Shown here piece after piece: positions 2,710 to 39,387 of a stretch of 39,387 nucleotides of DNA. Under the pieces are notes generated by a model, which worked only from the letters and a program-made list of their open reading frames with translations, ran no database searches and had not been told where the DNA came from. A program made the position numbers and the translations under genes. Source of the stretch: Planctomycetota bacterium (GTDB lineage Bacteria; Planctomycetota; UBA1135). Where the stretch lies: NCBI GenBank assembly GCA_045047305.1, contig JASFYO010000024.1:1-39387 (forward strand), read 5' to 3'. Position 1 is the first letter of the stretch. Every line of letters starts with the position of its first letter.

Positions 2710-2779
2710 GGTTACTTCTAGGTTAACCGCGCGTATGAGGTAACTTGGTTCCATCGTGGTCACTTCCCCACCCCTCTCC

Positions 2780-5700: not shown

Positions 5701-6166
5701 AGGAACCGCACTGGTTTGGTTCCCCGAAGAATCCGCCAAGCATCTTGCTGAGTTGGAGGAAGGGGAGTGGGTGCAGGAAATCCAGAAAACGCTCGACCTC
5801 TTCTTGGAGCAATGGATGATTGAGGATCCAAGTCAGGGTGTGACCGTGGTGTGGCCGCAATCCATCCCGCAAGCCACACGTGACAAAATGCAACAGCGCT
5901 ATGAGAAGGGGGAGGTGGAGGACATCACCATGCCGCGTGGCGGGATCTTCTTTGCAACTCACCCTGGACGCGCGGACCTCATGGAAAGTGGCATGACTGT
6001 GGGTGGATGGAAACGTCCGATCATCATGTTTGCCGACCCCGCCGGCATTCTTCAATTTGCTCGACGCCTCTCCCGCACCCGCTCCGGCTTGCATCGCGAC
6101 CTTCTGCGCCAACTGTTGGAGTTTCAGGATCACTCACGACCCGGTCAAGCCGGTTCCGACGACTAG
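2780..6166 (+). CDS. Large secreted multidomain protein with a gluzincin-type metallopeptidase motif (peptidase MA-like), helical/TPR-like segments and a ConA/DUF1080-like domain
   Basis: Likely GTG start at 2780 (signal peptide KRLLSSLAFVLIITNASFA). HELTH-x15-E (PAWLAEGRA). Beta-rich segment GGVVLGW...LELRVDGPTVEVFVN...GYIGFY. Confidence 0.7.
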   Translation: MKRLLSSLAFVLIITNASFAQQDPEGAEEHVSLRYGREARAQGDFTAAYEHFLFGLARASDSFSVVQMLLENAALAENADAQALWAHELYAYGADARGRLNLKKNQQKWMLKDDPWPAELAGLRASAVQELVKFRDRHANGRGAGDPFLAEWAEDLARSLALSSPALQEKYAANLTPTIEVSKAVQRRVLKALGNTMRKGFAESKNEWIIRAARCLRGLGAQSNFPDLEGPEPLKMSSELAAANASLGRARASLEVEKEVLTIENLEDFDEEMQRAFTLDHASFADPGVAFSKNKRYRVETSCGYWTLLGVASTVEEHHERLAAWYGEDPFLQQQGTMRMVPESHGLEMEGAGFWWVGGFQGGDITTISFTLSTIPGVGRTITHELTHRFDGKIFGGLPAWLAEGRAVWTGASYGAMSDREFVDDYVNFGTMFSVSQKGYGGSEKLSELVDGTIEEYRDNYSAGYALFVYLRSWTGFEDGETKIFRAQLEAYQRDKKRSRSGGLAGFVRYFCDGKEGRPSSFDAFTKDYNRFLKGFYWKDMQPWTARYDPGAPQGEPAQRVMDEPTATWLRNRAEPWFGQDQARMAAEVLVESGADREALAAYQWALAVDEPSDAVLDEIAQALERVDEKEAAWAIRHWHRFDSPRRNYLAAVEAKAAPFLGKLSKTKKLVEAMAQASEFYAEGDLLVAAAVMAADHDCLAQSLGLAQSRVLFPVDRAKEVLHPVHRPGHQLGTAGWMEDGLTGHEDNRVEGLWFIDRQGDLHVGRKQARSGTDTMDRQSQQRDAFVLSREWQDPGRYRLRTKIEQTTAYFHGGVVLGWTRRDRNIRFDFAGGDAQYASGESEDRTSSHGFHWTLDGLYTRQPRVSGNVGFDREKRTWDLELRVDGPTVEVFVNASLVGRMTTLDARPIQGYIGFYTSTGAIRVVTPKIERRDREVYLSTATALGMGLHPTQHGKTNIRDLLGRPVTGLPLAGPGTALVWFPEESAKHLAELEEGEWVQEIQKTLDLFLEQWMIEDPSQGVTVVWPQSIPQATRDKMQQRYEKGEVEDITMPRGGIFFATHPGRADLMESGMTVGGWKRPIIMFADPAGILQFARRLSRTRSGLHRDLLRQLLEFQDHSRPGQAGSDD

Positions 6167-6183: not shown

Positions 6184-8478
6184 CTAGTCGCGCTGCAGTT
6201 CGACTTGAGAAAAACCAACCGCGGCATTGCCAAGCTCACCGCCTTCAATTTCGGTGATGACAATTTTGAGGTAGTTCACTTTGATTGCTTTTGGAAACTC
6301 GATGACTGTCTTGCGCGCAGGTGAGGTTTCCACCTTGTACATAGTTGGATTCTTGTCTTTGTTCAGCCATAACTCAATTTGCGCGACGTGCGGATGCGCA
6401 GTTTGCTCTGATTTTCGGGTATGCGCTTGAGAAAGTAATAGGCGGTGGACTTTGGCTTTTTTGCGCAAAGAAATCTCTACAGTAGGGCGGGTATCGGTGA
6501 TGGCGCACTCCCAGTAGGAGTACCAATAGTTATCCACCAATAGGCCGCCATGGTTCCCACCGTTTTGACTGGAGACAGTGACTTTTGGACGATATGCGGG
6601 CACCAGATTGCGCGCGGAATCGCTTGCGTACTGGATGTCTTGAGCGCGAATACCAGTTTCGTATTCCAGCGAAAGGACTTCGCTTTCCCAAAGCTTGCCA
6701 TTGTCGCTTTCGGCCTTCACCTGGAAATGCCAAAGGCCAGGAGTCTCGGCACGGAAGCGATGTCCAAAGCGATTGCCCTCGCCCGCTCCAAGTGGCTGCC
6801 AATCTTCTTCATCGCGGCGCGCAAAATAGTGCGCTCCAAGCAAAGTGATTCCCTTGGGTGGAATAGTCCACAGCACAATGGGATCGCCTTCGAGTGCATG
6901 CAAAACTAAAAAGTTTTTATCGGGTTTGGTGGCGTGGTGACGATTGGTGCCATTACGGTTGCCACCAGTCGTCGCTGAGCGTGCGGTTGCTCGTTTGAGG
7001 AATAGAAGCGAAAAGCTAGTAGCGATGTCCTCTTGCCCCCAAGGGGTATTCCACTGGCCATCGGCCTTCTGATCCTCGACTAAAAAGCTGGAACCCTCGG
7101 CATACCAATTGTGGCTACCCATCATTTCGATGTCGAGCAAAGCCCCCACGCGTTCCACTCCGTAAAGCCAGTAATAGTAGTAGGCACGATCGGTACGGCC
7201 AGGGTTGTGCCCCAAAGAAAATTGGTGACCTAGCCATTCCATGCCTTCCGTAATCGCAGTATCGACTTTCACTAAGTCGGTGCGTTTCATGCGATCGCCG
7301 AGCTGATCGCGGCAAATGGCAAGTACTGCAACCCCGGCCGATGTCATCGTGCCCGACCATCCAGTTGGGTGCCCAGGGTAATAGGTAAAGGGTGAACCGA
7401 TTCGGTTTTTGTTGCGCCCGTTCCTTTGCTGGGAGATCAAGGCTCCATTTATGGCAGAAGCCCAAACCTTACGCGGAATTTCCACACCCCGTTGTGCAGC
7501 GGCGCGCAGGCCGAGTACCGCAAATTGGGTGCAGGACAAATCCCAATGCCCTGCGGGGTAGGCCCATTGTCCATTGTTCTCTTGCCAGGAGATGAGGTCT
7601 TCCGCACGCTCTTCCATCCACGGTAAAACATTCGGGTCATCCAATGCTGCCAAGGCCATGAGCTCGCAACCGGCAGAATATGTGCGGTCCGATGGCTCGG
7701 TGCGCAGGTATTCCAGACCGCGCAAAATGGCAGGGTGACGTGGATCCACTCCCGAACTTAGCAAGGCATAAATCACCAAAGCCGTGGCGCCATTGCGGTA
7801 AACAGTTTGTACATTCTGCCACGAGCCATCTAAAAGTTGGCGTCCGATTAAGTACTTCACTCCTCGATCGACGGCGAGGTTGATGGCATCTTGGTTCTCA
7901 AAGCGCGGCGATTGCATTTCAAAAGCCCATGCCCCGCCACTTTGTACCACCTTCACCAGCAGATGATTGATTCCAGGTTGCAGGGAGAGCGTGACATTTT
8001 CCTGATAGGCATTGCTTGCACGAGTCTCTGTGCTTTCGGAAACCAAAACCCCGTTGAGCCACATGCGCTGGCCATCGTCACTACCAAAGAAAATGGTTTG
8101 CTCGGTGGCGATGTCGGTTCGGATTGGGCAATAAAGATAGGCCGCTTGCTTGGGTGCACTTTCACCAGTAAGTGCAACGAGATCAAAACGTCCGCTATCA
8201 AAAGGTTCTTCGCCACGCGGATTGCTTGCAGTAGCAGGCTTCCATAGCTTCATTCTTCCCGACTGCTCCACTCCGTGTTCGGCGGGATTCCACTCCTTGC
8301 CTGCGGCCATCTGTTCCAGAAAACGCTCCGGAGGATGTGGAAGGCTTAAGTCCTCTGCGCTTTGGTGGGCAAAGGGACCCATAAATACCCAATCACCGAG
8401 CTCAACTTTTGCGCTTGGTTCTTGCGTAAAAAAAGGCGCGGAAATGAGGGTTAGGGCAAGGGAGGGAATCAGGAACAC
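6184..8478 (-). CDS. Secreted prenyltransferase/squalene-oxidase-repeat protein, paralogue of 358-2709
   Basis: Same architecture as 358-2709: GSDDGQRMWLNG...PGINHLLVKV; RQLLDGSW, WQENNGQW, DQKADGQW; DLSCTQFAVLGL; YYYWLYGVERVG; discoidin-like C-terminus ending GFSQVEL. Confidence 0.75.
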   Translation of the reverse strand: MFLIPSLALTLISAPFFTQEPSAKVELGDWVFMGPFAHQSAEDLSLPHPPERFLEQMAAGKEWNPAEHGVEQSGRMKLWKPATASNPRGEEPFDSGRFDLVALTGESAPKQAAYLYCPIRTDIATEQTIFFGSDDGQRMWLNGVLVSESTETRASNAYQENVTLSLQPGINHLLVKVVQSGGAWAFEMQSPRFENQDAINLAVDRGVKYLIGRQLLDGSWQNVQTVYRNGATALVIYALLSSGVDPRHPAILRGLEYLRTEPSDRTYSAGCELMALAALDDPNVLPWMEERAEDLISWQENNGQWAYPAGHWDLSCTQFAVLGLRAAAQRGVEIPRKVWASAINGALISQQRNGRNKNRIGSPFTYYPGHPTGWSGTMTSAGVAVLAICRDQLGDRMKRTDLVKVDTAITEGMEWLGHQFSLGHNPGRTDRAYYYYWLYGVERVGALLDIEMMGSHNWYAEGSSFLVEDQKADGQWNTPWGQEDIATSFSLLFLKRATARSATTGGNRNGTNRHHATKPDKNFLVLHALEGDPIVLWTIPPKGITLLGAHYFARRDEEDWQPLGAGEGNRFGHRFRAETPGLWHFQVKAESDNGKLWESEVLSLEYETGIRAQDIQYASDSARNLVPAYRPKVTVSSQNGGNHGGLLVDNYWYSYWECAITDTRPTVEISLRKKAKVHRLLLSQAHTRKSEQTAHPHVAQIELWLNKDKNPTMYKVETSPARKTVIEFPKAIKVNYLKIVITEIEGGELGNAAVGFSQVELQRD

Positions 8479-8550: not shown

Positions 8551-9534
8551 TTACTGCACCTGAGTTGCGAGGCTCTGCCCCAAAGTGAGGGTACCTGGGT
8601 CGTATATCTGTAGCCAAACCGGGGAGCCAGCGAGTCCTAGAGGAACGATAAAGGTCAACGAGGCATCGCCTTGAGCGTCGGCGAGAATGGCGAAGGTGGT
8701 GACCGGCGGAGTGAGGTCGACCAAGCCAATCGGTGACATCCATGGCCCACCGCCGATGAGGCTGCGTCCGGTGAATGCGATTTGGTTTGGGGTGAGATTG
8801 CCCGCACTCATGGTGGCGCTTTGTCCAGCGATGAGCGGAGTGATGCTCAAGGTCGGCCCAGCGTTTACATCTTCCACTACCGCTCGAATAAACAGGTTGC
8901 GCGCTTCGGCGGCAAAGGAGCCAGAGGAATCGTTGCAATCTGCACTAATCGAAGAGTGTCCAGCCGAGGGCACACTGTAGACAATGGTGAATCCAGAATC
9001 GCCGGCACAAGGATTGGAAGGGCGGAGCTCAATGGAAAAGTCCGAGCTCCCGACCTGAATGCCGAGGCTGCTTACATCGATCACTTGCCAGTTGGCGGTG
9101 TCGAGGACTGCTGTGAGGTTCAGCATCGTGCCGATGACTAAGCCACTGGTATTGCGCACGAGGAGATCGAAGTTCTTGCTGGCACCCCATTGAGTCGAAG
9201 CGACATAGCGCACTTCTAATAGCTGGCCAGTAGCACTGCCTACTGGAGTAAAACGAACCGAATGCGCCCAGTAACTCCAGCCTGGAATGATGTCGGCATG
9301 CTGTAGATTGCGCGAAGTGCCGGCGTAATCCCCATCGTCATAAAAAAGCTCCGTGCTGTTTGGAGGCAGCGCCGGAGAAAACACGATGGAACGTGTGAGT
9401 TGGCCAGTTTCAACGGTGGTGATGCCGTCGGAAGTGAACTGTTGCGCGCCCAGCGAGGAGCCGAGGAGAGCAAGGCCGAGGCTCAGAAGCGCGATACGGG
9501 GTGTAGCGCGGGGCAACAGATGGGGGATGGCCAT
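8551..9534 (-). CDS. Secreted hypothetical protein (YDDG-motif beta domain plus ~100-aa C-terminal beta-rich domain)
   Basis: Signal peptide RIALLSLGLALLGSSLGA; ELFYDDG...SVRFTP; C-terminal ADAQGDASLTFIVP...VWLQ. Confidence 0.65.
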   Translation of the reverse strand: MAIPHLLPRATPRIALLSLGLALLGSSLGAQQFTSDGITTVETGQLTRSIVFSPALPPNSTELFYDDGDYAGTSRNLQHADIIPGWSYWAHSVRFTPVGSATGQLLEVRYVASTQWGASKNFDLLVRNTSGLVIGTMLNLTAVLDTANWQVIDVSSLGIQVGSSDFSIELRPSNPCAGDSGFTIVYSVPSAGHSSISADCNDSSGSFAAEARNLFIRAVVEDVNAGPTLSITPLIAGQSATMSAGNLTPNQIAFTGRSLIGGGPWMSPIGLVDLTPPVTTFAILADAQGDASLTFIVPLGLAGSPVWLQIYDPGTLTLGQSLATQVQ

Positions 9535-15391: not shown

Positions 15392-16471
15392 TTAAAAGTC
15401 CGTGTCATCAGCGGCATCAAGCTGATCCTTCGTTTCGTGAAGGAACTTGTCTGCGATGGCAAGCATAGCAGTCAAGTCTATGGCGCGAACATCGGGGCGG
15501 CCGAGTGCGCGGTCTAGGTCCGCAATGGACCATTCCAAATCAGAAGACTCCAGGGTGAGATGGATTTTCGTCATAGGCGCACGGGTGAGTGCAGCCCCGG
15601 GCGGATAGGTGGCATCGAAATTCAAGCCAATTAGGACTCCGGTACGGGCCTCAAATACAGCATCGACCAGCGCGGTGTTTGCCCAAACCGTAAGCAGCGC
15701 TTTTTCTGGCGCATCGAGCAACAGTTGAAAGGCTGAATAAAGCGGAGAGTCTTCACTGAGATCCAGGCCCAACTTGCAGTAGATGCGGTTGTCCGCGAAA
15801 CGTAGAGAGTGACAGGCTAAAGCCGTGTGGGTGAGATCGAGAAAATACTGTGGATGAAAGGCATGCACAGGAGATTCCAGGTTGGAGCGAAAAAACGCAG
15901 AGCTCGAAATCCCATAGCCATTGAGGTTATCCAAAAACTTCGGCATCAAGCTCATGATGGATGCATAGGTGGATTCAAAGGCGGATTGCTGAAACTGTAC
16001 GGCATAGGTTTTGTCGGGGTCTACACCCGGAACCCCGTTAGCCGTGCCCCAACTGCGCAGATAAAACCCATCGCATAGCATGGTACCGGTGAGATCCCAA
16101 TCGGATTTGGAATCTGGTAAGCTAAGAACTAGGAAGGCGTCGAGCCGGGAACGGTTGGTATCGATGCCTTGATAATGGAAGTTGCCGACGGCTTTTCCAT
16201 GGGTCACTTCCTTTGTTTCTGGGTTTTGGCGTTCGAAGTTTGCGTCGAGTGAATATTGAATCGAAAGAGGCAGGGTGACTTCTGTTGCGAGGGCGTCGCG
16301 CCACTGCTGGAAAGCTTCAAGGGCCTCCGGTCCGCTGACGGTTAAGCCACCGCGTAAGGACTGCGGAACGATGGCATCGTAGAGCTTGGCTTTGGGAGTG
16401 CCACCATTGCATGCGCCCAATGTGAGGCATCCAAGTAAGGCCAATAAAGGTGCGGGGGAGAGTCGGCCCAT
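15392..16471 (-). CDS. Hypothetical lipoprotein
   Basis: Start moved to ATG 16471: MGRLSPAPLLALLGCLTLGA-C with lipobox LGAC. No family recognised. Confidence 0.6.
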   Translation of the reverse strand: MGRLSPAPLLALLGCLTLGACNGGTPKAKLYDAIVPQSLRGGLTVSGPEALEAFQQWRDALATEVTLPLSIQYSLDANFERQNPETKEVTHGKAVGNFHYQGIDTNRSRLDAFLVLSLPDSKSDWDLTGTMLCDGFYLRSWGTANGVPGVDPDKTYAVQFQQSAFESTYASIMSLMPKFLDNLNGYGISSSAFFRSNLESPVHAFHPQYFLDLTHTALACHSLRFADNRIYCKLGLDLSEDSPLYSAFQLLLDAPEKALLTVWANTALVDAVFEARTGVLIGLNFDATYPPGAALTRAPMTKIHLTLESSDLEWSIADLDRALGRPDVRAIDLTAMLAIADKFLHETKDQLDAADDTDF

Positions 16472-16526
16472 GAAGAGGAGTATCCCAGATAGGGAGCACC
16501 TTGCAAATCCAGTACGATTCGGAGTG

Positions 16527-17990
16527 ATGATACGCCTCACTGCTCTACTTTGTCTGAGTTCGCTATTTCTGGCCTGTACCAAGGCCGAGGGGGAAGCGGA
16601 TCTTGTTGCTCCTGCAGCAACCCATGCCACAGCTATGCAAAATGACGATGGCCTACCTCCAGATATCATCCTTATTTTGGCCGACGACCTTGGTTATGGC
16701 GATTGGGCTCCAACTGGCGGCCCGATGCGCACCCCATATCTCACCCAGCTCTGTGCCGATGGCGTGCGTTTGGATCAATATCGCACTTATCCTATTTGCA
16801 CTCCGACTCGCACCGCCTTGATGGGGGGCATGGCGCCAATTCGATACGGCATGGCCTTTTCCCCGCTGCGTAACTGGGAACAGCGTTCCTTTCCTCGTGA
16901 TCTTCCAACCTTAGCGGAACGCCTCCACGACACGGATTATCAAACCGCCATTGTGGGCAAGTGGCATTTAGGTCTTGCGGAAAAGTGGATGCTTCCCAAC
17001 CAGCGCGGATTTGATCATTTTTATGGCTTCCTCACCGGCTCCATCAATTATGCCAGTCACACCAACGGACATTCCGGATTAGATTGGCAGCGTAATGGTG
17101 TCTCCGTGGATGAAGAAGGTTATTCGACAACCTTGTTTGGAGAAGAAGCAGCACGTTGGATTGGCGAACAGAGTGTTGAAAAACCATTGTTCCTTTATCT
17201 TCCATTTAACGCTCCGCACACACCGGTGATTGCTCCCGTGGAATTTACCAAGCGCTACAAAGAGGAGGTTCCAGATTTAGCCCGGCGCAAATTCTGCGGT
17301 ATGGTCGACGCTATGGACGATGCAATCGGTACCGTTTTAGCTGCAGTGGAAAAGCGCGGGCGTAGCAACAACACCTTGGTCATTTTCCTTTCGGATAATG
17401 GTGCTTCTTTGAAGGCGAAAGGCTCTAACGGGAATCTGCGCGGCTCCAAAGGGGGCACGTATGAGGGAGGAATCCGAGTTCCAGCTGTGGTGCGCTGGCC
17501 CGCCCAATTTCCAGCAGGCGCGGTAAGTCATGATCTGGTCGACGTCTTGGATTGGGTGCCTACCATCCTGCAAGCCGCTGCAGTGGAAGACTTAAGTTCC
17601 TTCGACGGGCGCTCCGTAATTTCTGCGTTGAGTCATCCGATTACGGATACTGGAGAAACGACTGCCCGCAACGACTTGTTCTATGTGGCCTCGACGCAAA
17701 AGCACATCAGTTACAGCGTGGTGCGTTGGCCGTGGAAGTGTGTACGTCGTGTGCGCAAGGTCAATCAAGGCTTGAGTGTGCAACTATTCCGTTTGGACAC
17801 GGATCCACAGGAGGCGGTGGATGTCAAAGTGGAAAACCCGGAGATTTTGGCGGATCTTACTACGGCCATAGATGTCTGGTTTGCCCAAATGGCGCCCGAT
17901 GAAGACATGTTAGCCCCAAGCGAGTGTATTGAAAAAGCGGCCCCATCCACTTGGAAGGAGCCGCAAGATTGGGCGACGTTTTCGCGCTAA
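16527..17990 (+). CDS. Arylsulfatase (formylglycine-dependent S1 family, Cys-type), predicted lipoprotein
   Basis: ILILADDLGYGD, CTPTR (CxPxR), GKWHLG, PFNAPH, FLSDNG and KGGTYEGGIRVP; lipobox-like LFLAC after the start at 16527. Confidence 0.92.
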   Translation: MIRLTALLCLSSLFLACTKAEGEADLVAPAATHATAMQNDDGLPPDIILILADDLGYGDWAPTGGPMRTPYLTQLCADGVRLDQYRTYPICTPTRTALMGGMAPIRYGMAFSPLRNWEQRSFPRDLPTLAERLHDTDYQTAIVGKWHLGLAEKWMLPNQRGFDHFYGFLTGSINYASHTNGHSGLDWQRNGVSVDEEGYSTTLFGEEAARWIGEQSVEKPLFLYLPFNAPHTPVIAPVEFTKRYKEEVPDLARRKFCGMVDAMDDAIGTVLAAVEKRGRSNNTLVIFLSDNGASLKAKGSNGNLRGSKGGTYEGGIRVPAVVRWPAQFPAGAVSHDLVDVLDWVPTILQAAAVEDLSSFDGRSVISALSHPITDTGETTARNDLFYVASTQKHISYSVVRWPWKCVRRVRKVNQGLSVQLFRLDTDPQEAVDVKVENPEILADLTTAIDVWFAQMAPDEDMLAPSECIEKAAPSTWKEPQDWATFSR

Positions 17991-23112: not shown

Positions 23113-23796
23113 TTAGGCTTGGATTTGCGCCAGCTTTTCTTTGGCACCCTGGGCGATGACATCGACCCACGATTCGAAACAAAGGCTTTCGCGTTCCACC
23201 GTTGCATCCATCAAGGATTGCCAGCGATCGCCAAACAAAACTTTGGTGCGCTCAGCCATTTCAGCGAGGTGGCGTAGCTCGTCCTTCAAAATGGAACGTA
23301 CCGAAAATGGCGCGCCAGCGTTTTGCAACACTTGTTCATATAGCGGGTAAAAAGCCTCTGCACGAATCTCAATCGCAAAGCTCGATAGTAAGTAGTTGGC
23401 TTCTTTGCGCTCAGCGTCACCGAATTCAAAGTCCGTCAACAATTCTTCGCAGGCATGATCGACTTCCTGTAAATAAGCTTCAGCGCCTTCCCCGGCTAGA
23501 GTGTCTTCTGCGGAGTAAGTTCGCACTCCATCCTCCAAGCCACCAAGTAGTTTGATCGCGGCTTTTTTCAGGCGCAAGGCGTGGGTGGCCTCCTCGACGA
23601 TATGTTGAACGCCATCCAGGTCGAGGAAATCGACATGTCGCGCCTTAAGCATTTTCCTTACGCCCACATATTCCATGCGCGAAAGCGTATTCACCATACG
23701 GGCGTGCAAGAATGGTTCCGCCACGATGCCTGGCAGAGCAGCAGCAAGGCGCTCCATACAAGGCTGATTTCGGACTAGTTCGGCGTAGCGTTCCAT
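23113..23796 (-). CDS. Ferritin-like superfamily (probable di-iron carboxylate) protein of unknown function
   Basis: E...EEATH and E...DELRH ligand pattern (SRMEY, HIVEEATH, AIEIRA, ILKDELRH) in a helical protein. Confidence 0.65.
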   Translation of the reverse strand: MERYAELVRNQPCMERLAAALPGIVAEPFLHARMVNTLSRMEYVGVRKMLKARHVDFLDLDGVQHIVEEATHALRLKKAAIKLLGGLEDGVRTYSAEDTLAGEGAEAYLQEVDHACEELLTDFEFGDAERKEANYLLSSFAIEIRAEAFYPLYEQVLQNAGAPFSVRSILKDELRHLAEMAERTKVLFGDRWQSLMDATVERESLCFESWVDVIAQGAKEKLAQIQA

Positions 23797-24017: not shown

Positions 24018-25718
24018 TTAAAAGCGTCGCGACTCCCAAACAACTTCGCCTTCCAGCACGGTTTGGAGCACCTTAGTTTTGCCGATGGAAGTCTTTGGAA
24101 TGTTAAAGATATTGCGGTCCAGGACGATGTAATCGGCGGATTTCCCAACCACGAGAGAACCTGAAATGGTGTCGGTACGCATGAGGTAGGCGGCCTCGAT
24201 GGTGTAGGCACGAACCGCTGCAGCGACATTGGGAAGGCTTTGCGGACCGCGGTTTAAGGCGTTCTGCATTCCGAGGAATGGGGAGAGGGAGCCGACATCG
24301 AAATCGCTACTTAGAACAACGTGTGCACCGGAGTTGAAGATGTCGAGCAAAGGCAGGCTGCGCTCCTCAATGCGTCGGCGCCCGAGTAATGGAGCGCTTT
24401 CGTATTGATAGGCTGGTAGAACAAAGTCCGAAGACATTTGGAAATCGGCAATTACGCCGAGTTGATTGAAACGGGGGACATCCGTCGGTTCAACTAATTC
24501 CACATGCGTAATCCGGTGCCTACGTTCTGGCAAGTTTGGATTCGCCAGTTGCGCAGCTTCTACCGAGTTTAGTGATTCACGTACACCGCGATCTCCAATC
24601 GCATGAATGTGCATGTCAAAACCAACTCGCTCTAATTCGGTGATGTAGCGAGTCAGGCGTGATTGTGGAAAGTAGTTCAATCCAAGCGGGCCAGCGAGTT
24701 GCAATCTGCGATAGGGTTCGAGAACCGCGCCGGTGGAAAGCGCAGCCACTCCATCGGAGTAGAGTTTGATTTGGGATATTTTCAAGCGCGATTGCGGGCG
24801 GTTCTCGTACATCGAAGCGAGTTGCGCGATTTGTGCGTTATCGTCCATGTCTGGATAAGCCCATAAGCTAAGGATGGTTCGCGCGGTCATCACGCCGCGG
24901 GTTTCGGCTTTGCGATATGCCTCGACATAGCCGCGCTTCCAATAGACACGCGCATCGACCAGCGCAGTGATGCCATTACGTGCGGCATGGCGGTATCCAA
25001 TGCGCAAGGCTTTGTCATTGAGTAAATCCAATTGCGGAGAACGCGCCATGGCAAGATTCATGACCATCTCACCTGCTGCATCTATCAAAATCCCGTTAGG
25101 GCGTCCGCTCCAAAAGTTTTTCATGATGACGCCACCAGGAGGATCTGGGGTATGGCGATCAATACCTGCAGCTACAAGAGCAGCACTGTTCACCCAAATT
25201 GCGTGCGAAGTCTCTTCCATGATGGCCGCTGGTCCGCTGGGCACGGCATCATCCAGGATTGCGAGAGGAGTGCGCGCGAAAAAGAACTCGTCAATCAGCA
25301 CATCGAACAAAGAAAAGCCCCAGCCTAGAACCCAGTTGGTGCCGATTTGATTTCCAGCTTGGGCCTGAATCGTGGGGATGTAACTTTCAAGCGACCTTCC
25401 AGATTCCAGTAGCACCGTTCCGCCAGCAGGGTGGTGCGCTTCGAGCAAATGCACATGACTATCGCCGATTCCGGGCATCACCATGCGACCATTTAGATTG
25501 ACCATCTCGGTTGCGGAGCCACGATAAGCCATCGCTCCGGCATGATTCCCAACATAAAGAATCGTGCCATTTTTGATTGCCATAGCCTTGGCCCATGGTT
25601 GGGCGGCGTCGACCGTGTAAATCGCGCCGTGGTGAAGGATGCGGTCCGCTTGTGGGAGACTAGTTTGTGGGCTAGCTTGAGCGGCAATCGTAAAAAGGAT
25701 GAGTAGCAACGAAAGCAT
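24018..25718 (-). CDS. Secreted amidohydrolase family 3 (YtcJ-like) metal-dependent hydrolase
   Basis: Signal peptide; VMPGIGDSHVH, HAIWVNSAAL, KLYSDG, HIHAIGDRG, RHRITHVE, SSDF, AYTIEAA and GSLVVGKSAD. Confidence 0.9.
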   Translation of the reverse strand: MLSLLLILFTIAAQASPQTSLPQADRILHHGAIYTVDAAQPWAKAMAIKNGTILYVGNHAGAMAYRGSATEMVNLNGRMVMPGIGDSHVHLLEAHHPAGGTVLLESGRSLESYIPTIQAQAGNQIGTNWVLGWGFSLFDVLIDEFFFARTPLAILDDAVPSGPAAIMEETSHAIWVNSAALVAAGIDRHTPDPPGGVIMKNFWSGRPNGILIDAAGEMVMNLAMARSPQLDLLNDKALRIGYRHAARNGITALVDARVYWKRGYVEAYRKAETRGVMTARTILSLWAYPDMDDNAQIAQLASMYENRPQSRLKISQIKLYSDGVAALSTGAVLEPYRRLQLAGPLGLNYFPQSRLTRYITELERVGFDMHIHAIGDRGVRESLNSVEAAQLANPNLPERRHRITHVELVEPTDVPRFNQLGVIADFQMSSDFVLPAYQYESAPLLGRRRIEERSLPLLDIFNSGAHVVLSSDFDVGSLSPFLGMQNALNRGPQSLPNVAAAVRAYTIEAAYLMRTDTISGSLVVGKSADYIVLDRNIFNIPKTSIGKTKVLQTVLEGEVVWESRRF

Positions 25719-25738
25719 GCACCAAGGCTATGCCTCGA

Positions 25739-25757
25739 ACCTGAGAATCACCTGAGA
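25739..25757 (-). promoter_or_regulatory. Tandem 8-bp direct repeat with 11-bp period (TCTCAGGT-gat-TCTCAGGT on the - strand); putative OmpR/PhoB-family binding box
   Basis: ACCTGAGA at 25739-25746 and 25750-25757, 8 nt upstream of a -10-like TAGCCT (25725-25730, - strand) that lies 6 nt before the amidohydrolase ATG. Confidence 0.55.
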
Positions 25758-26980
25758 CGCGGCGAGAAATCTAATATTTCTATGCGAGCCCCGCCTTCAG
25801 GGGCGTTTTGCAGTGATATTTTGCCGCCGTGAAGTTCGACAATCATGCGCAAGAGGGTGAGTCCAAGGCCGACTCCGCCTTGTGAGGAAACAAAGGTAGC
25901 GCCGTCGTCGATTTTTTCGAATACGCGCTCAGGAAATCCCGGGCCTTGGTCTTGCATAACAATTCGGTTCGGCGCGAGTACCAGGCTGACCGTTTTCTGT
26001 GTAGCCTCCCCGTGGCGCTCAGCGTTGCGCATCAAGTTATCGAAGAGAATGCGGAACAAGCCTTCGTCTACATTGACTTCGATTTCACCACCACGAATTT
26101 CAACCTTTAGATTTTCGGGTATCAAGGCCTCGGCCATTAGATCCAGGCGCAAAGGTTGGCGTTGCAGTTTGGTGGTTCCGGAATCGAGTTGAGCGAACAG
26201 CAATAATTGATCGACTACCTTCGCGGTGTTGCCAGCCAGGCGATGAATGCGCGGCAGTACATCGGGGGTATTCGATTCGGCAAGCACACTTAAGGTGCTG
26301 AGCGGTGTGCGGATTTCGTGCGCAGCAGCCGATAGAAAACGCTCACGTTCTTCCAGCGCCTGAACCACTGGAGCGAGGCTGCGTCGCGAAAGAGCATGGC
26401 CTAGCCAAAACCCAAGCGCAAGGAGAAGGATGCAGTAGGTGCCCAAGCGGAGGACAAAGGTGTCGGCCAAAAGCGAAGATTTTTGGTTGGACCCTAGAAC
26501 CAAAACTGCTGCGCGTGGGGTATCACTGTTTCCATCCTGATACACCAGGGCGGTTTGCAAGCGCAGGTTGTGCTGTGGCAGAGTCCGCGCTGCATCAGAA
26601 AAGGACGGCTCAACTGAAAGTGCCTGTTGCGCAAGGCTGCGCAGGTCTGGCTGCGCATAGTGCATTTGCGGGGATTGCCAATGGATCGTCATTTGCGGGT
26701 CAGGCTCAACCACCCAAATGTCGAAAGGGGAGTCGGTAATCTCGGTGTCTTGGGCTAAAAGCTCGCCATGAAAGTTACCGTTGGCGTCAAACCAGGAGAG
26801 GCCATAGGTGGCAGTGGCATAGATGGAAAGTTGGCTGTCCAGATTTTGACTGTCTAGATTGCGCTTTAGGACGACGGCAAGGATTCCAAGCGAAAGTACG
26901 CAAACCGTCCAGCCAATCATCCACAGTCCACCAATGCGTCGGCGTAGAGGTTGCAGCTTTTCTTCGATGGGATGACTCAT
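25748..26980 (-). CDS. Sensor histidine kinase (two TM segments, HisKA plus HATPase_c)
   Basis: H-box AAHEIRTPL, N-box NLMRNAERH, G-boxes DQGPGF and GVGLGL; overlaps the regulator stop (ATGA). Confidence 0.93.
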   Translation of the reverse strand: MSHPIEEKLQPLRRRIGGLWMIGWTVCVLSLGILAVVLKRNLDSQNLDSQLSIYATATYGLSWFDANGNFHGELLAQDTEITDSPFDIWVVEPDPQMTIHWQSPQMHYAQPDLRSLAQQALSVEPSFSDAARTLPQHNLRLQTALVYQDGNSDTPRAAVLVLGSNQKSSLLADTFVLRLGTYCILLLALGFWLGHALSRRSLAPVVQALEERERFLSAAAHEIRTPLSTLSVLAESNTPDVLPRIHRLAGNTAKVVDQLLLFAQLDSGTTKLQRQPLRLDLMAEALIPENLKVEIRGGEIEVNVDEGLFRILFDNLMRNAERHGEATQKTVSLVLAPNRIVMQDQGPGFPERVFEKIDDGATFVSSQGGVGLGLTLLRMIVELHGGKISLQNAPEGGARIEILDFSPRLR

Positions 26981-27648
26981 GCGTCGGATCCAACTTCAAG
27001 TACATAGCCGAAACCGCGCACAGTGTGGACTACAGTGGGGTTGCCTAGTTTGCGTCGTAGAGCGGCGACGACGACCTCTTCCACATTCGAGGAGGATTCG
27101 CGCGCGGTATCCCAACAGGCGTTGTGTAGATCACGTCGGGATATGGCTTGACCAAGGTGAGTCGCGAGATATTCGAGGACAGCATATTCCTTAGGGCGCA
27201 AAGGTAAGAGCATGCCGTTGCGCTTGGCCTGACGTCGGGCGAGATCGATTTCCAGATTACCGACGACTACGGTGGCAGGTGCGCCGCTCCCTCTACGCCG
27301 GGCAACCGCAGAAACGCGGGCGAGCAGTTCATCCATGGCAAATGGTTTGACTAGGTAGTCGTCGGCCCCTGCTTGTAATCCCTCTACACGCTCTTCCACT
27401 TTGCCTTTTGCCGTTAACAAAATGGTAGGAGTGGATACGCCCTCCCGGCGCCAATGCTCGACCTGATGTGCGCCATCGCCATCGGGCAGCATGCGATCCA
27501 TAATGATGACCGCGAAGTCATGTATGGGTAAAAGCAAGCGTGCCGTCGCGAGGTCTCCTGCTTCGTCGACGCTAAAACTCTTCTCGCGCAGATGCTTTGC
27601 CACAGCCTGCCGAAGTTCAGTTTGGTCTTCCACAAGGAGAACGCGCAT
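26977..27648 (-). CDS. OmpR/PhoB family DNA-binding response regulator
   Basis: MRVLLVED, IMDRMLPDGDG, LLTA, GADDYLVKPF, LRRKL and HTVRGFGY. Confidence 0.95.
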   Translation of the reverse strand: MRVLLVEDQTELRQAVAKHLREKSFSVDEAGDLATARLLLPIHDFAVIIMDRMLPDGDGAHQVEHWRREGVSTPTILLTAKGKVEERVEGLQAGADDYLVKPFAMDELLARVSAVARRRGSGAPATVVVGNLEIDLARRQAKRNGMLLPLRPKEYAVLEYLATHLGQAISRRDLHNACWDTARESSSNVEEVVVAALRRKLGNPTVVHTVRGFGYVLEVGSDA

Positions 27649-27675: not shown

Positions 27676-28446
27676 GTGCGCACCATCAACCTAAATCCTT
27701 TCAGTTTGGATTTCTCAAACCTTCACGCGGCCTGGCTTCATCCAGTATTCGAAGCTTTGGCTTATTTTGCTGCAGGGCTTTGGTATCGGCTTAGCAAACG
27801 CAAGCGGAAGGACCCGTTGCGAGACCAAGACCGCACCACGGTTATTGTCGCGGCAATTTTAGGTGCAGCGATTGCTTCCAAGTTATTGCACCACCTCGCC
27901 TCCCCGGCAGAGTTTCAAATGCAGTTGCAAGAGGTTGGCTGGCGCGGCATTTTCCCGTACCTGATGAGTGGAAAAACTATAGTCGGTGCTCTTCTCGGTG
28001 GTTGGCTCGCAGTCGAGGTCACTAAAAAGCATTATGGGATTCAACAACGTAGCGGCGATTTGTTTGCCCTGCCGTTATGCCTTGGCATTGCAGTGGGAAG
28101 GCTGGGCTGCTTTTTCGCTGGCCCCGCGGACGATACGCTTGGCACTGCCACAGACTCTATCTTTGGTATAGATTTTGGGGATGGAATATTGCGCCATCCC
28201 ACGCCGCTGTATGAAATCGTTTTCCTATTTGGGCTGGGGATGATCATTGCCAAGGCCAGCAAGCTCTTGCGTCAAGGTGAAGCCTTTCGAGTCTTCCTGC
28301 TCGGCTACCTTAGCTTCCGTTTTCTGATTGATTTCCTGAAACCATATGAAGTTTACTTTGGGTTGCGTATCATTCAGTGGGCTTGTTTGCTCGGCATCAT
28401 GGCGCTCCTTCGCGGCTTTTTGACCCAGCCAAAGCTTTCCTCATGA
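27676..28446 (+). CDS. Prolipoprotein diacylglyceryl transferase (Lgt)-family protein, divergent paralogue
   Basis: GRLGCFFAG, RHPTPLYE and FRFLIDFLKP motifs, multi-TM; GKTIVGALLGG stands where canonical Lgt has SFHGGL. Start uncertain (GTG 27676 or ATG 27655). Confidence 0.82.
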   Translation: MRTINLNPFSLDFSNLHAAWLHPVFEALAYFAAGLWYRLSKRKRKDPLRDQDRTTVIVAAILGAAIASKLLHHLASPAEFQMQLQEVGWRGIFPYLMSGKTIVGALLGGWLAVEVTKKHYGIQQRSGDLFALPLCLGIAVGRLGCFFAGPADDTLGTATDSIFGIDFGDGILRHPTPLYEIVFLFGLGMIIAKASKLLRQGEAFRVFLLGYLSFRFLIDFLKPYEVYFGLRIIQWACLLGIMALLRGFLTQPKLSS

Positions 28447-29870
28447 CAAGGGTTCGCGATTACCAATACTATGACCTCACCATTTCTCTGTGTGCGGAAT
28501 GCTTGCGTAAGGTCGACGCGAAGATTTTATTCCAGGATGGGAAAGTGTGGATGGATAAGCGCTGTCCGGAGCATGGAAAAGCACGAGTCTTAATTGCAGA
28601 CGACATAGAATATTACCGCCGCTCCCGCGAAGTCTTTTTGAAGCCTTCCGAGATGCCGGTAAAATTTCAAACTCCGGTGAAGCATGGTTGCCCTTATGAC
28701 TGTGGTTTATGTTCGGACCATGAGCAGCATTCTTGCGTGACGCTCATCGAACTTGGGGAGCGCTGCAATCTTGCTTGTCCGGTCTGCTATGCGGAGAGTG
28801 GACCGCAAGTTGGCGGCTTCCATTCCTTTGAAAAAGTGGTACGCATGCTGGATGCGGTAGTCGCAAGTGAAGGCGAACCCGATGTCGTGCAGTTATCTGG
28901 TGGCGAGCCCACGATTCACCCGGACTTCTTCCGCATAATGGATGCGGCGCGCGATCGCCCAATTCGTCACTTAATGGTGAACACCAATGGTTTGCGCATT
29001 GCACAAGAGCCTGGCTTTGCAGAACGTCTTGCTGAGTACATGCCGGGGCTTGAGTTGTACCTACAATTTGATTCCTTAGAGGAAGAGCCACTACAGGTTT
29101 TGCGCGGAGGAGACTTACGCGGAATCCGAGAAGCTGCACTCGGGCGCCTGAATGCTCTTGGCATTTCAACCACACTAGTTGTCACTTTGGTGCCGGGATT
29201 GAATGACCATGAAATAGGTTCGATTATTGATTTTGCGCTAACCCAACCTGCCGTGCGCGGCGTTACCTTTCAACCAGTGCAGGATGCGGGGCGCATGGAT
29301 GCTTCGACTAAGCAAACGGAGCGCTTAACGGTAAGCGGTGTGCGGCGTAAAATTTTGGAGCAGACTCAAGTCTTCAAGCCTGCAGATATCCTTCCCGTCC
29401 CGTGCAATCCTGACAGCATTGCAATGGCTTATGCGCTCAAGATAAAAGGGGGCGTGATTCCGCTAACCGGGTTGTTTGACCCGCAAGATCTCATGGATGG
29501 CACGCGCAATACCATAAGTTTCGAACGCGATCCAGCACTGCAAGCGAAACTGTTCGATGTCCTGTCTACCAGTCATTCGCCAAGTTCTGGCGCAGCGAGT
29601 CTTGCCGATTTACTTTGCTGCTTGCCCAAAGTGGAGTTGCCAGAGAGCCTTGGTTATGAAAACTTATTCCGTGTCATCATCATGCGTTTCCAGGATGCGG
29701 AAGACTTCGATGTGCGGACCATAAAGAAGAGTTGCGTTCACGTGGTACACCCTGAAGATGGACGCATGATTCCGCTTGAGACATATAATTTATTTTACCG
29801 TGGGGATTTGGAGAAAACGGTCTTGGAGAAGTTGCGTTACCCCGATAAAGAGGTTGCGTGGACGATTTAG
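28443..29870 (+). CDS. Radical SAM protein, Tes/GDGT-MAS (MJ0619)-like family
   Basis: Start ATG 28443 (ATGA overlap). CAEC-x20-CPEH rubredoxin-like site; GCPYDCGLCSDH; SAM cluster CNLACPVC; SGGEPTIHP; NTNG; YLQFD; C-terminal FD...KKSCVH...IPLETYN. Confidence 0.88.
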   Translation: MTRVRDYQYYDLTISLCAECLRKVDAKILFQDGKVWMDKRCPEHGKARVLIADDIEYYRRSREVFLKPSEMPVKFQTPVKHGCPYDCGLCSDHEQHSCVTLIELGERCNLACPVCYAESGPQVGGFHSFEKVVRMLDAVVASEGEPDVVQLSGGEPTIHPDFFRIMDAARDRPIRHLMVNTNGLRIAQEPGFAERLAEYMPGLELYLQFDSLEEEPLQVLRGGDLRGIREAALGRLNALGISTTLVVTLVPGLNDHEIGSIIDFALTQPAVRGVTFQPVQDAGRMDASTKQTERLTVSGVRRKILEQTQVFKPADILPVPCNPDSIAMAYALKIKGGVIPLTGLFDPQDLMDGTRNTISFERDPALQAKLFDVLSTSHSPSSGAASLADLLCCLPKVELPESLGYENLFRVIIMRFQDAEDFDVRTIKKSCVHVVHPEDGRMIPLETYNLFYRGDLEKTVLEKLRYPDKEVAWTI

Positions 29871-30205
29871 ATTCAGGAGCGAACCCTTCTGAAATGAAGA
29901 AGGGCGACCATGCCATGATGGGGTTTCTCCAGGCCATTGGTCTGGTCATTTTGTTTCAACTTTCTTTGGCTTTACTTGCGATGGTCGTTAAAGAGTGTTG
30001 GCCGTCAGTTGGCACGTATGAGACCTCCTTCACATTCTTCTTTCTTTCCATAGGGTGGACCCAACTTCTATACCTTCCTTTTTTCTTAAAGAGGCAGAGG
30101 CGTGGAGGAATGAATGAAAGAGCCAAGGGGGTTGCGACAGTAATCGGGGCTTTATTTCTATTAACTTCCGCCTGCAACCTGATTTTCAGTGGGACAAGTT
30201 TCTAG
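29858..30205 (+). CDS. Small membrane protein A (3 TM) with C-terminal lipobox-like Cys
   Basis: Overlaps the rSAM stop. GWTQLLYLP..KRQRR..AKG-14 mostly hydrophobic residues-C(NLIFSGTSF). Start may be ATG 29894. Confidence 0.7.
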   Translation: MDDLDSGANPSEMKKGDHAMMGFLQAIGLVILFQLSLALLAMVVKECWPSVGTYETSFTFFFLSIGWTQLLYLPFFLKRQRRGGMNERAKGVATVIGALFLLTSACNLIFSGTSF

Positions 30206-30212
30206 AAAAGCC

Positions 30213-30536
30213 ATGAATCAACCTTCTCCTATGAAGTCCCACCCCCAACCCCCAGTCGAAGAAGAGGGGTGGAAGGCTATCGCTTTGGTCCTTGTCGTAG
30301 GTGCGGTATTGCTATCCCTTTCCTTTCTAAGTGGATTCTTCGGGTTAGGGGGGATATCCATTTTCTTATTCATTGTCGCGGCTCAAAGCGGATGGGTTCA
30401 AATCCTTTACCTGCCAGTGATGGCATTAAGATTTCGCAAACAAGGTCGCATGAATAAAGCCAAGGGCTTTGCGATTTCATCCGCAATTTTGTTCACCTTA
30501 ACTGGCCTGTGTAACGGCCTAATGGTGTGGGGATGA
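30213..30536 (+). CDS. Small membrane protein B, paralogue of A
   Basis: GWVQILYLP..RFRK..AKG-14 mostly hydrophobic residues-C(NGLMVWG). Stop overlaps the next ATG. Confidence 0.7.
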   Translation: MNQPSPMKSHPQPPVEEEGWKAIALVLVVGAVLLSLSFLSGFFGLGGISIFLFIVAAQSGWVQILYLPVMALRFRKQGRMNKAKGFAISSAILFTLTGLCNGLMVWG

Positions 30537-31501
30537 TGGCGCTTTCCTTTTTCTGCGCATGGATTTTGCTTAGCTTCGGGCAATCGACGTTGCCGCATCA
30601 AGGGTCCGAAATCCAGGTCGGCGACCGCCTCGTGCGCATTCATTGTGAACAGAATTATGAAGCTTTCGTGTATGCGAAGAATCTTTCCGCTCCGGATGGC
30701 CTTTGCTTTGACGGCGAGGGGCAACTTGTGGTGGTTGAAGAGACTGCAGGGCGCATCACCCGGATAGACCAAGGTGGAAAGTCTCACATTTTGGCGCAGA
30801 ATCTGCATTCCCCCGAGGGCATTTGCCGAGCCCCCGATGGCACTCTTTATGTCACTGAAGACCTTGCAGACGGTCGGCTCTTAGCGATTTCGCCCAAGGG
30901 AGAAGTCCTGGCTTTAGCTTCTGGCCTGGATGCACCGGAAGGTGTGGTGCAGATGGGGGATTCCATTTACATCACGGAATCTACGGCGCAACTTAGCGAG
31001 AACTTTTTTGCAGCGCATTCGCGAGTATCCGTTTTGCGGCGCACGGAAGAGGGCTGGAGCCGGCCTCAGCTTTGTTTGCAAGTTGAGTCGCCGATTAGCT
31101 TTTCCGAAGTTGTCAGCGACGGAGCAGGGGGTCTCATCTTTGCCAATGAAGTCGCCGATGGAATGTTCGTGCGTAAGGCGCTTTGGCATTTTGATCTATC
31201 ATCCAAAAAGCTAAGTCTGTTCGCGTCGGGATTGAAATCCCCTGAGGGATTAGCCACTACGCCGGGGGAGTGTGGGCCATTTCCACTCTACGTTGCTGAA
31301 GAAAACGCAGATGGAAAGGGCCACGGTCGCATTAGCCAAGTTGATGAAAAAGGTAAGTGCTCCATTTTCGCAACCGGATTTTTTACGCTGGAAGACGCGG
31401 TCGTCGCGGCAGACGGTTCCATATATGTTAGTGAGGACGCCACTGGACTTATCATTGTCTTACGCCCGCTTCTTAAACAGAAAAGGCCGCGCTCCCAGTA
31501 G
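30533..31501 (+). CDS. Secreted beta-propeller protein (NHL/SMP-30-gluconolactonase-like repeats)
   Basis: Signal peptide; repeats NLSAPDGL, NLHSPEGI, GLDAPEGV and GLKSPEGL, each followed by a YV.E-like strand. Confidence 0.75.
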   Translation: MMALSFFCAWILLSFGQSTLPHQGSEIQVGDRLVRIHCEQNYEAFVYAKNLSAPDGLCFDGEGQLVVVEETAGRITRIDQGGKSHILAQNLHSPEGICRAPDGTLYVTEDLADGRLLAISPKGEVLALASGLDAPEGVVQMGDSIYITESTAQLSENFFAAHSRVSVLRRTEEGWSRPQLCLQVESPISFSEVVSDGAGGLIFANEVADGMFVRKALWHFDLSSKKLSLFASGLKSPEGLATTPGECGPFPLYVAEENADGKGHGRISQVDEKGKCSIFATGFFTLEDAVVAADGSIYVSEDATGLIIVLRPLLKQKRPRSQ

Positions 31502-38523: not shown

Positions 38524-39387
38524 ATGCCTGGAATCACCCTCCGCTCCTTCCTTCTCCTCATCGCTGTATGTGGCCTTTGCGGGACACTAAGCAGCCAAGT
38601 GTTTCAATATGACTACGACGGGATTCCGAATCCCATCGCTCAGCTCTCCGATATCGATGGAGACGGGATTCCGGAATACCTCACGGGGGTGGTGCGCAAT
38701 CAAGAGCCTTTCATGCAGATCTACTCTCTTGCCTTGAACCAGCCCCTCGTGGAGTGGGGGCTGGGGGTCAATGTTTCGGGGCCAATTCTGGAAGACTTGA
38801 TGCTTCCCTTTGATTTGAATCAAGATGGATTTCTGGATATATTTTTCAGACAGGCTACAAGTAACCAAGGCTGCCTCGTGGCCTACAGCGGTCTTGACGG
38901 TACGCTCATTTGGGAGAGGAACGATTTCCTGGCACCGACTAGCCCCTTTGGCATCCCCACGGCCATCGGTGATAGAAATGGCGATGGAATTGTTGATTTC
39001 GTTACTGCGCTTGCCGGCGGTGAAATCGTGCATTTATCTGGCGTCGATGGCTCTACTTTGCAACGAAACCCAAGCGGTTTTCTCAACGCCGCCGAACACT
39101 ATTACCCTGCAGGTGATTTAGATGGAGATGGAATTCCAGATTACTTCGCGGAACTCTTCGGCTCAGCCTGGGCCTTCTCAGGCGCCACCGACACTGTGCT
39201 CTTTTCTTTGCCCATCGGCATTGAACGAAGCCACCATAGCTTAGCGGGAGTCGGCGATGTCAACGGAGATGGCTACGATGATTTCGCCTACTTTCCGGAG
39301 GAATCCTTGGAGGGGCGGCAGCCTTTGGAGGTCTGGACCGGCTCTCCTCCAAGAAGACTTGGGATTGTTCCCGGGCACCATCATGGT
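38524..39387 (+). CDS. Secreted FG-GAP/VCBS (integrin-alpha-like beta-propeller) repeat protein, 3'-truncated by the window (absent from the ORF track)
   Basis: ATG 38524 gives MPGITLRSFLLLIAVCGLCG (signal peptide). Ca-binding repeats DIDGDGIPE, DLNQDGFLD, GDRNGDGIVD, GDLDGDGIPD and GDVNGDGYDD. Frame is open to the window end. Confidence 0.85.
   Translation, partial: MPGITLRSFLLLIAVCGLCGTLSSQVFQYDYDGIPNPIAQLSDIDGDGIPEYLTGVVRNQEPFMQIYSLALNQPLVEWGLGVNVSGPILEDLMLPFDLNQDGFLDIFFRQATSNQGCLVAYSGLDGTLIWERNDFLAPTSPFGIPTAIGDRNGDGIVDFVTALAGGEIVHLSGVDGSTLQRNPSGFLNAAEHYYPAGDLDGDGIPDYFAELFGSAWAFSGATDTVLFSLPIGIERSHHSLAGVGDVNGDGYDDFAYFPEESLEGRQPLEVWTGSPPRRLGIVPGHHHG

Follow-up and report, generated by a model that had tools for sequence, protein, structure and literature searches.

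What could an additional paralogue of the diacylglyceryl transferase Lgt do next to a protein of the radical S-adenosylmethionine (SAM) type that resembles the tetraether synthase Tes, also called GDGT-MAS (glycerol dialkyl glycerol tetraether–macrocyclic archaeol synthase)? The question is raised by positions 1 to 39,387 of contig JASFYO010000024.1 (assembly GCA_045047305.1, a planctomycete of the UBA1135 lineage); this whole stretch of 39,387 nucleotides is called the window below. An earlier analysis of the bare DNA, the sequence-only reading, had combined five adjacent genes of the window into one candidate lipid-modification system. These encode the Lgt paralogue, the radical SAM protein, two small membrane proteins, A and B, and a beta-propeller. 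Four of the five genes, of three kinds, form a tightly coupled, widespread module. The beta-propeller, proposed as the fifth component, is a resident neighbour.

The module is new as a system and is built from known enzyme families; its enzymes score below the membership cut-offs of housekeeping Lgt, Tes and TrsS. No published study of the module was found, in agreement with the earlier statement that no characterised pathway of this composition is known; subscription papers were mostly outside the search, and absence from print is thus unproven. Nor was a pathway joining radical lipid-tail chemistry to protein lipidation found in the literature.

Coupling of the two enzymes across genomes

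Relatives of the radical SAM protein were analysed at 61 loci from species-representative genomes, 41 of them with 56-70% identity. The records are titled Planctomycetota, Acidobacteriota, Cyanobacteriota, Bacteroidota, Bacillota and Pseudomonadota, with one Vampirovibrionales and one Poseidoniales bin. An Lgt-like gene lies within the radical SAM locus at 31 of the 41 close loci. Five of the ten exceptions were searched genome-wide, and four of these carry an Lgt-like gene elsewhere.

The two genes also occur together when they are not linked. Among 151 genomes of the cyanobacterial phylum (150 evenly drawn plus the centre), the radical SAM protein is present in 17 and the Lgt paralogue in 16, all of the latter within the 17; these counts include kin and are not independent. 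The members of the pair are 1.34 Mb apart in one genome (G081) and lie on different contigs in four others.

Finally, the two enzymes are often fused. When the best 8,000 candidates were scored, 91 of the 98 longer homologues of the Lgt paralogue also contained the radical SAM protein, 90 of them in the order Lgt, then radical SAM. Public databases label the fusion proteins with both domain names. On a quick tree of 80 rows, sampling 12 of the 26 and 15 of the 62 fusions of two groups, one group joins the clade of the window protein with SH-aLRT 100, and the other stands apart (98). Since the fusion groups fall into separate clades, the tree suggests two separate fusion events, if split genes are ancestral.

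From neighbourhood, co-occurrence without linkage and gene fusions, the two enzymes are judged to be functionally coupled. The same lines of evidence uphold the proposal of one functional unit for the Lgt-like, radical SAM and small cysteine-bearing proteins, and the arrangement of these genes recurs across phyla. The beta-propeller, which had been placed in the same unit, is linked to it at none of the 61 loci. No conserved third enzyme, peptidase or transporter was found among 1,308 open reading frames (ORFs) clustered from the 61 loci. The only ORF families of at least 110 amino acids common to more than five of these loci are the two enzymes and their shadow frames.

All five genes of the candidate system are plus-strand ORFs (Table 1). 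The junctions had been described correctly: ATGA overlaps at 28443-28446 and 30533-30536, and a 7-nt gap at 30206-30212. The 13-nt overlap at 29858-29870 depends on the start of protein A. It is present if translation begins at the GTG and absent if it begins at an in-frame ATG (29894 or 29915). The start of the Lgt paralogue is uncertain by some codons, its reading frame being open from 27592.

Table 1. Positions of the five genes in the window.
Feature	Position	Strand	Length and family matches
Lgt paralogue	27676..28446	+	256 aa from GTG; PF01790 above cut-off, TIGR00544 below
Tes/GDGT-MAS-like radical SAM protein	28443..29870	+	475 aa; Radical_SAM and Zn_ribbon_HMPTM domains
Small membrane protein A	29858..30205	+	115 aa from GTG, 103 aa from ATG 29894
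Small membrane protein B	30213..30536	+	107 aa; paralogue of A
Beta-propeller, ScyD/ScyE-type	30533..31501	+	322 aa; NF033206

An Lgt-like and radical SAM pair was also observed at locus L022 (5192-7515), in a record titled Candidatus Poseidoniales archaeon (MG-II bin); it has 60% identity and falls inside the bacterial clade. A single weak Tes homologue has been reported in 231 MG-II genomes (Zeng 2022). The latter may belong to the class described here and not be a GDGT synthase; mis-binning of L022 is possible. More distant homologues (H3-H10, 30-38% identity) reside on plasmids or secondary replicons of haloarchaea and actinobacteria.

Small membrane proteins as candidate acceptors

Proteins A and B were confirmed as two small membrane proteins with a cysteine near the C-terminus. 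They are paralogues (20 of 42 positions identical), with the last cysteine at 94/103 and 100/107, respectively. The last helix of protein A ends with L-T-S-A-C (cysteine codon 30173-30175) followed by a 9-residue tail, and that of protein B with L-T-G-L-C (30510-30512) followed by a 7-residue tail. No Pfam or NCBIfam family was found for A or B in a search with 31 members, apart from one stray match (E 0.0025). The ESM Atlas neighbours are unnamed hypothetical proteins, with recognition below the threshold of the tool.

A profile of these 31 members (family A) yields 2,015 clusters at 50% identity. Its members have about 100 residues and three hydrophobic segments; Gln and Pro in their G-x-x-Q-x-x-Y-x-P pattern are invariant, a loop is basic, and L-N-x-x-C closes the last helix. 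Among the best 150 members the cysteine is kept in 145 and Asn at position -3 in 139. This cysteine lies about 16-18 residues past the basic loop and thus faces away from the radical SAM side. Searches of 151 and 61 genomes detected family A in 6 and 3, respectively; each of these genomes also has the radical SAM protein, next to which at least one copy lies. A locus contains one to four paralogous small proteins, conserved before the cysteine and ending with a variable tail of 5-17 residues. As the sequence after the cysteine is not conserved, no peptide core seems to be offered to the radical SAM protein. Three members (P0059, P0071, P0137) are tandem double-domain proteins without the motif cysteine.

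Other small proteins stand in for family A elsewhere. In Acidobacteria these are proteins of two helices, the first of which ends with S-L-G-L-C, and in some cyanobacteria they are short signal-peptide-like ORFs with W-F-A-S-E-A-C. The at least three unrelated types have only the feature of a helix ended by cysteine in common. Candidates of the third type, of 61-89 amino acids, were observed upstream of either the Lgt-like gene or the radical SAM gene at L083, L085, L086, L087, L089, L082 and L101; they consist of a signal-like helix, W-F-A-[ST]-x-A-C, and a Pro-rich tail with a further cysteine pair. At L088 (4420-4938) a 172-aa membrane protein is encoded between convergent radical SAM and Lgt-like genes and contains an internal S-L-C-G after a hydrophobic helix; it is a possible fourth type of acceptor.

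The association was quantified with a filter requiring a cysteine after a hydrophobic run following Lys or Arg; the ORF had to encode 40-260 residues and lie no more than 700 nt away. On the cassette strand 49 of 59 loci were positive. The opposite strand gave 5 of 59, and more distant windows 9 of 194; these loci, too, include kin. With seven other residues in place of cysteine, 16-25 of the 59 loci were positive.

The motifs of the cassettes resemble a lipobox and mostly differ from the canonical form. Among 73 of them, Gly, Ala or Ser occupies position -2 in 58 and Asn, Ser or Thr position -3 in 43, and the canonical box occurs in one. The pattern [LVI][ASTVI][GAS]C with an N-terminal signal matches neither A (T-S-A-C) nor B (T-G-L-C), and two of the 150 family members have it. 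Candidate lipoproteins of the host genome, selected by a similar N-terminal filter, have the canonical box in 13 of 59 and Asn, Ser or Thr at -3 in 6 of 59 cases. By these motifs the small proteins carry a near-invariant cysteine placed like that of a lipobox.

Active sites and candidate reactions

The assignment of the Lgt paralogue to the Lgt family holds (81.8 bits for PF01790, cut-off 24.9), as does that of the radical SAM protein to GDGT-MAS-like proteins, its best solved relative being GDGT-MAS 7TOL (E 4.5e-68). The Lgt paralogue falls below the profile of housekeeping Lgt (TIGR00544, 47.4 bits, cut-off 118.9), and its model has a sole match with E below 0.001, Lgt 5AZB (E 3.5e-5, TMq 0.54, root mean square deviation (rmsd) 6.2). 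That it is a paralogue, as had been proposed, is confirmed by a second, stronger Lgt match of housekeeping type on another contig of the same genome (C9).

The paralogue shares with E. coli Lgt (PDB 5AZB/5AZC) the fold, the G142-R143-x-G145 signature and the equivalents of G154, H196, E202, Y235 and R239. Arg143 and Arg239, which are essential for transfer (PMC4728403), correspond to R142 and R215 of the window protein. All 117 paralogues have the former and 116 of the 117 the latter; Glu202, Tyr235, His196 and Gly154 are likewise kept. In contrast, the HGGL motif of the E. coli enzyme is replaced by K-T-I-V-G, the head domain is much shorter, and the substitutions H103V, M100K, N146C and R246K are observed, Lys at the Met100 position being nearly invariant among paralogues. 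In the first helix a His22-x3-Glu26 pair lies over E. coli Y26/Y30, alignments differing by one turn, so that position 26 is either His22 or Glu26. Unlike housekeeping Lgt, the paralogue is tied or fused to the radical SAM protein, and its putative acceptors have an internal or non-canonical box. Thus it looks catalytic, with a rebuilt active site.

The model of the radical SAM protein superimposes on 7TOM with TMq 0.80, Z 44.7 and rmsd 2.5 over 405 residues; the next entries have Z of at most 19.4. It scores 267.2 bits with the NCBIfam profile of Tes (NF045702, cut-off 450) and 314.9 bits, its best NCBIfam score, with that of TrsS (NF045646, cut-off 490). The ligands of the rubredoxin site (C17/C20/C41/H44), the N-terminal cluster (C83/C87/C90/H93) and the CxxxCxxC motif (C108/C112/C115) are conserved in 38-39 of 39 members of its clade. 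The SAM contacts R221, Q277 and R284 and the contacts Arg210, Gln268 and Arg275 are conserved as well. The protein thus shares with Tes/GDGT-MAS (MJ0619; 7TOL, 7TOM) the four-domain fold, all these sites and an equivalent of Met439 (Met414).

The C-terminal part is different. In GDGT-MAS the C-terminal cluster, held by three cysteines and Met439, stores the first lipid radical (PMC13459092). The C-terminal domain of 7TOL has five cysteines, and 13 Bathyarchaeota homologues retain only 338, 455 and 470 of them; by this elimination, which makes no use of coordinates, these three are the probable ligands. The window protein belongs to a separate clade in which they are not retained. It also has Val in place of Tyr459 and new invariant Cys321, Cys392 and Cys393. 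Archaeal Tes and TrsS-like loci have an Lgt-like gene or cysteine protein alongside in 0 of 16 cases (under the stricter cysteine filter). The TrsS radical SAM (seleno)protein (NF045646; Haft and Tolstoy 2025, cited in PMC13188914) has the same domain layout; however, TrsS-like loci keep the Tes-type cysteines and have no Lgt-like neighbour, and the 475-codon frame of the window contains no in-frame UGA. A radical SAM protein that does act on bacterial acyl tails is the membrane-spanning lipid synthase Mss of Thermotoga and Thermoanaerobacter, which demonstrates that tail coupling exists in bacteria; it is described as only remotely related to Tes, and the accessible sections of the paper mention no link to protein lipidation (PMC13159169).

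By analogy, the module would work like an Lgt joined to a GDGT-MAS-type enzyme. The reading that fits best, to which we give an even chance, is that the radical SAM protein modifies the tail of a phospholipid, whose diacylglyceryl is then moved by the Lgt paralogue onto the cysteine of A or B. Topology suggests this order. The C-terminus of Lgt lies in the cytoplasm. The radical SAM protein is assigned to the same side, as it has no membrane helix by hydropathy and follows the last Lgt helix in the fusions. The active site of Lgt faces outward (PMC4728403), and the pockets of GDGT-MAS accommodate entire phospholipids, E. coli phosphatidic acid among them (PMC9433317). The radical SAM protein would then act on a phospholipid before transfer and not on the finished anchor.

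We infer the chemical steps, all of them, from the coupling, the folds, the kept and lost residues and the acceptor motif. Firstly, the radical SAM protein, at the cytoplasmic membrane face and adjoining or fused to the Lgt paralogue, would bind a phospholipid as GDGT-MAS does and abstract hydrogen from an acyl tail. Secondly, the tails might be coupled by a carbon-carbon bond, with the C-terminal cluster re-ligated by C321, C392/C393, C431 or E446, which is possible but doubtful; less likely still, the cluster would be absent and a product of one radical, such as a double bond, a ring or a sulfur adduct, would result. Finally, the Lgt paralogue would move the altered diacylglyceryl onto the thiol of the cysteine at the outer end of the last helix, and it, instead of housekeeping Lgt, would read the non-canonical box (polar at -3, small at -2). 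The product would be a small membrane protein, or a short lipopeptide after cleavage, with an unusual anchor.

A number of observations weigh against this reading. His103, which is essential in E. coli Lgt, is replaced by Val, Met or Leu in the paralogues, and Tyr26 is replaced too. The second Lgt of Mycobacterium smegmatis, MSMEG_5408, combines Y26H with N146C, the same two changes as in one of the alignments here, and this homologue is presumed to be low in activity (PMC13251419). On the other hand, natural Lgts tolerate Tyr, Trp or Phe at position 103 (PMC13251419), and the His22/Glu26 pair could replace His103 as the base. Tail coupling meets a further difficulty, as the window residues at the positions of Cys338, Cys455 and Cys470 are S325, S430 and E446, and cysteine occupies these positions in 12 of 39, 0 of 39 and 0 of 39 members of the clade and in 0 of 26 of its fusions. 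The 21-residue insertion of the archaeal enzyme is missing, and residues 357-398 are poorly modelled (pLDDT below 50), which leaves the two hydrophobic lipid pockets of GDGT-MAS putative in this protein. On the acceptor side, 5 of the 150 family A members have no cysteine, and the filter finds no cysteine protein at 10 of the 59 loci. The filter itself is a version relaxed once: its stricter form had yielded 35 of 59 (one being the Lgt-like frame itself) compared with 3 of 59 and 2 of 194 and missed known family A members. Some of the matches may be spurious frames. As only 13 of the 59 host candidates fit the strict lipobox pattern, "non-canonical" is a matter of degree.

Hence the proposal that the radical SAM protein couples lipid tails keeps its basis in the GDGT-MAS fold and is weakened by the disappearance of the three probable ligands across the clade. 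By these residues tail welding is not secured for this enzyme. The C-terminal cluster is either lost or re-ligated, perhaps with Asp/Glu and Ser/Thr, which are fixed at two of the old positions. C321, C392, C393 and C431 are invariant in the clade, and most of the other fused clade has them too. That second clade of Lgt-radical SAM fusions (P0180-P0243; L069, L070) has all three Tes-type cysteines, in 62 of 62 proteins, and four to five more; its N-terminal cluster motif is altered, and Lys stands at the Met439 position. Of the two clades it is the stronger candidate for genuine coupling of tails.

The order of the two reactions could also be reversed. The Lgt paralogue would add an ordinary diacylglyceryl, and the radical SAM protein would then cross-link the tails of the anchor, join two lipoproteins or modify the peptide. 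The latter could proceed as in ribosomally synthesised and post-translationally modified peptides, the conserved helices before the cysteine being the leader and the variable tail the product. This comes near to the cross-linked lipopeptides suggested in the sequence-only reading. The paralogues at each locus, with their conserved pre-cysteine part and variable tail in family A, would suit such a route; the fusion would hold both enzymes at one spot, and LspA is encoded in the genome. However, the radical SAM protein should be cytoplasmic, while the cysteine and the Lgt active site face outward; the three unrelated acceptor types have no common peptide motif beyond the box; no peptidase or exporter is among the conserved neighbours at the 61 loci; and the fold is much nearer to GDGT-MAS than to peptide maturases (Z of at most 19.3). 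We regard this order as unlikely.

Another possibility is that the radical SAM protein is a bulk synthase of membrane-spanning lipids or branched GDGTs (brGDGTs), with the Lgt-like and small proteins as helpers or a side branch. Bacterial Tes homologues have been proposed for brGDGT synthesis (PMC8941075, PMC10087280), and the clade is common in Acidobacteria. Yet this would leave the near-obligate tie to cysteine proteins and to an Lgt bearing the catalytic arginines unexplained, and the probable ligands of the C-terminal cluster are lost. Moreover, only 3 of 14 acidobacteria producing iso-diabolic acid contain Tes homologues, and the other examined producers all lack them (PMC13159169); and the radical SAM protein has a patchy spread, occurring in 2 of 36 genomes of the same family. 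A bulk synthase is accordingly improbable in our view. For the preferred reading, modification of a phospholipid followed by transfer, the same patchiness would fit an accessory role in the envelope.

Equally improbable is that the Lgt-like protein no longer transfers diacylglyceryl to cysteine and instead presents a lipid, anchors the radical SAM protein or moves another group. The cysteine of the small proteins would then be a metal ligand, a redox site or a sulfur acceptor for a carbon-sulfur bond made by the radical SAM protein. The replaced His103 and Tyr26 and the nearly invariant Lys100 point in this direction, as do the absence of the usual cluster ligands from the radical SAM protein and the fact that GDGT-MAS chemistry goes via a lipid carbon-sulfur bond (PMC9433317). 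Against it stand Arg143, Arg239, Glu202, Tyr235 and His196, kept in both clades, the His22/Glu26 pair that could stand in for His103, and the position of the cysteine, past the basic loop and away from the radical SAM side. A defence system of the viperin anti-phage type was rejected, as only the radical SAM core matches pVip in PADLOC, with 40 bits over about 100 of 257 positions, and the other four proteins have no match.

If a modified phospholipid is indeed transferred to A and B, the module would add to the known kinds of lipid anchor, would reveal a lipobox code beside the usual one, and would include an Lgt whose active site has been rebuilt. In the boldest version, which we put forward tentatively and hold to be rather doubtful, tail-welded anchors would exist in at least six bacterial phyla: a macrocyclic or membrane-spanning lipid, made by the Tes-like enzyme with a re-ligated cluster, would be fixed by a dedicated Lgt to a non-canonical cysteine, so that both leaflets hold the lipoprotein. 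Protein lipidation would thereby gain a new class, and many bacterial "Tes homologues" would have to be reassigned away from brGDGT synthesis. Even without tail welding, the lost ligands point to a different reaction on the GDGT-MAS scaffold and are a caution against taking such genes as evidence for membrane-spanning lipids. Both Tes discovery papers treat the bacterial homologues as unexplained (PMC8941075, PMC9433317). In work on climate proxies these homologues are named as possible brGDGT synthases, and the present large clade has its own transferase and candidate acceptors. Thereby the function of bacterial Tes homologues becomes directly testable with four small genes.

Beta-propeller and other genes of the window

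The beta-propeller scores above the cut-off of NF033206 (88.3 bits, cut-off 80), which is uninformative about a role in the cassette. No match to it was found in the 61 loci around radical SAM relatives. A homologue (57% identity) occurs in one of 60 related genomes, G004 of the same genus, and lies there between the same flanks: the gene at 23113 and an HI0933-like gene on one side, and OPT, cytochrome c peroxidase, M1 peptidase and DEAD helicase genes on the other. The 16 kb examined at this syntenic locus contain no cassette gene, and the radical SAM protein has no match in the G004 genome. Conversely, G001 and G020, where the cassette is present in other settings, contain no match to the beta-propeller at E 1e-10, the genomes of this comparison being 87-89% complete. 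These observations rule out the beta-propeller as a member of the module.

The divergent genes for an amidohydrolase, a histidine kinase and a response regulator (24018-27648, minus strand) start only 27 nt from the GTG of the Lgt paralogue. They are absent together with the cassette from the syntenic locus of G004, and other loci do not have them as conserved neighbours. Most simply, the cassette, the two-component pair and the amidohydrolase would be one block that was acquired, or retained, upstream of a beta-propeller already resident there. In G004 a single ORF of 267 amino acids (L081:8258-9061) lies upstream of the beta-propeller, where the inserted block would sit.

The GC content is 47-51% over the cassette, compared with 53-57% around it; membrane-protein genes could explain the dip. 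A scan for promoters and terminators gave six sites of each kind, which is near the averages for shuffled sequences (3.6 and 5.2, respectively).

Elsewhere in the window, two paralogous-looking proteins of 760-820 amino acids (358-2820 and 6184-8478, minus strand) have weak matches to a squalene-cyclase-like barrel and to F5/8 type C domains. Between them, on the plus strand (2756-6166), a 1,136-aa protein is encoded that has only a weak peptidase MA match. The ORFs at 8551-9534, 15392-16669, 23113-23796 and 38587-39033 encode proteins of 148-425 amino acids for which Pfam yields nothing at E 0.01; the one at 23113 has 82% conservation in G004.

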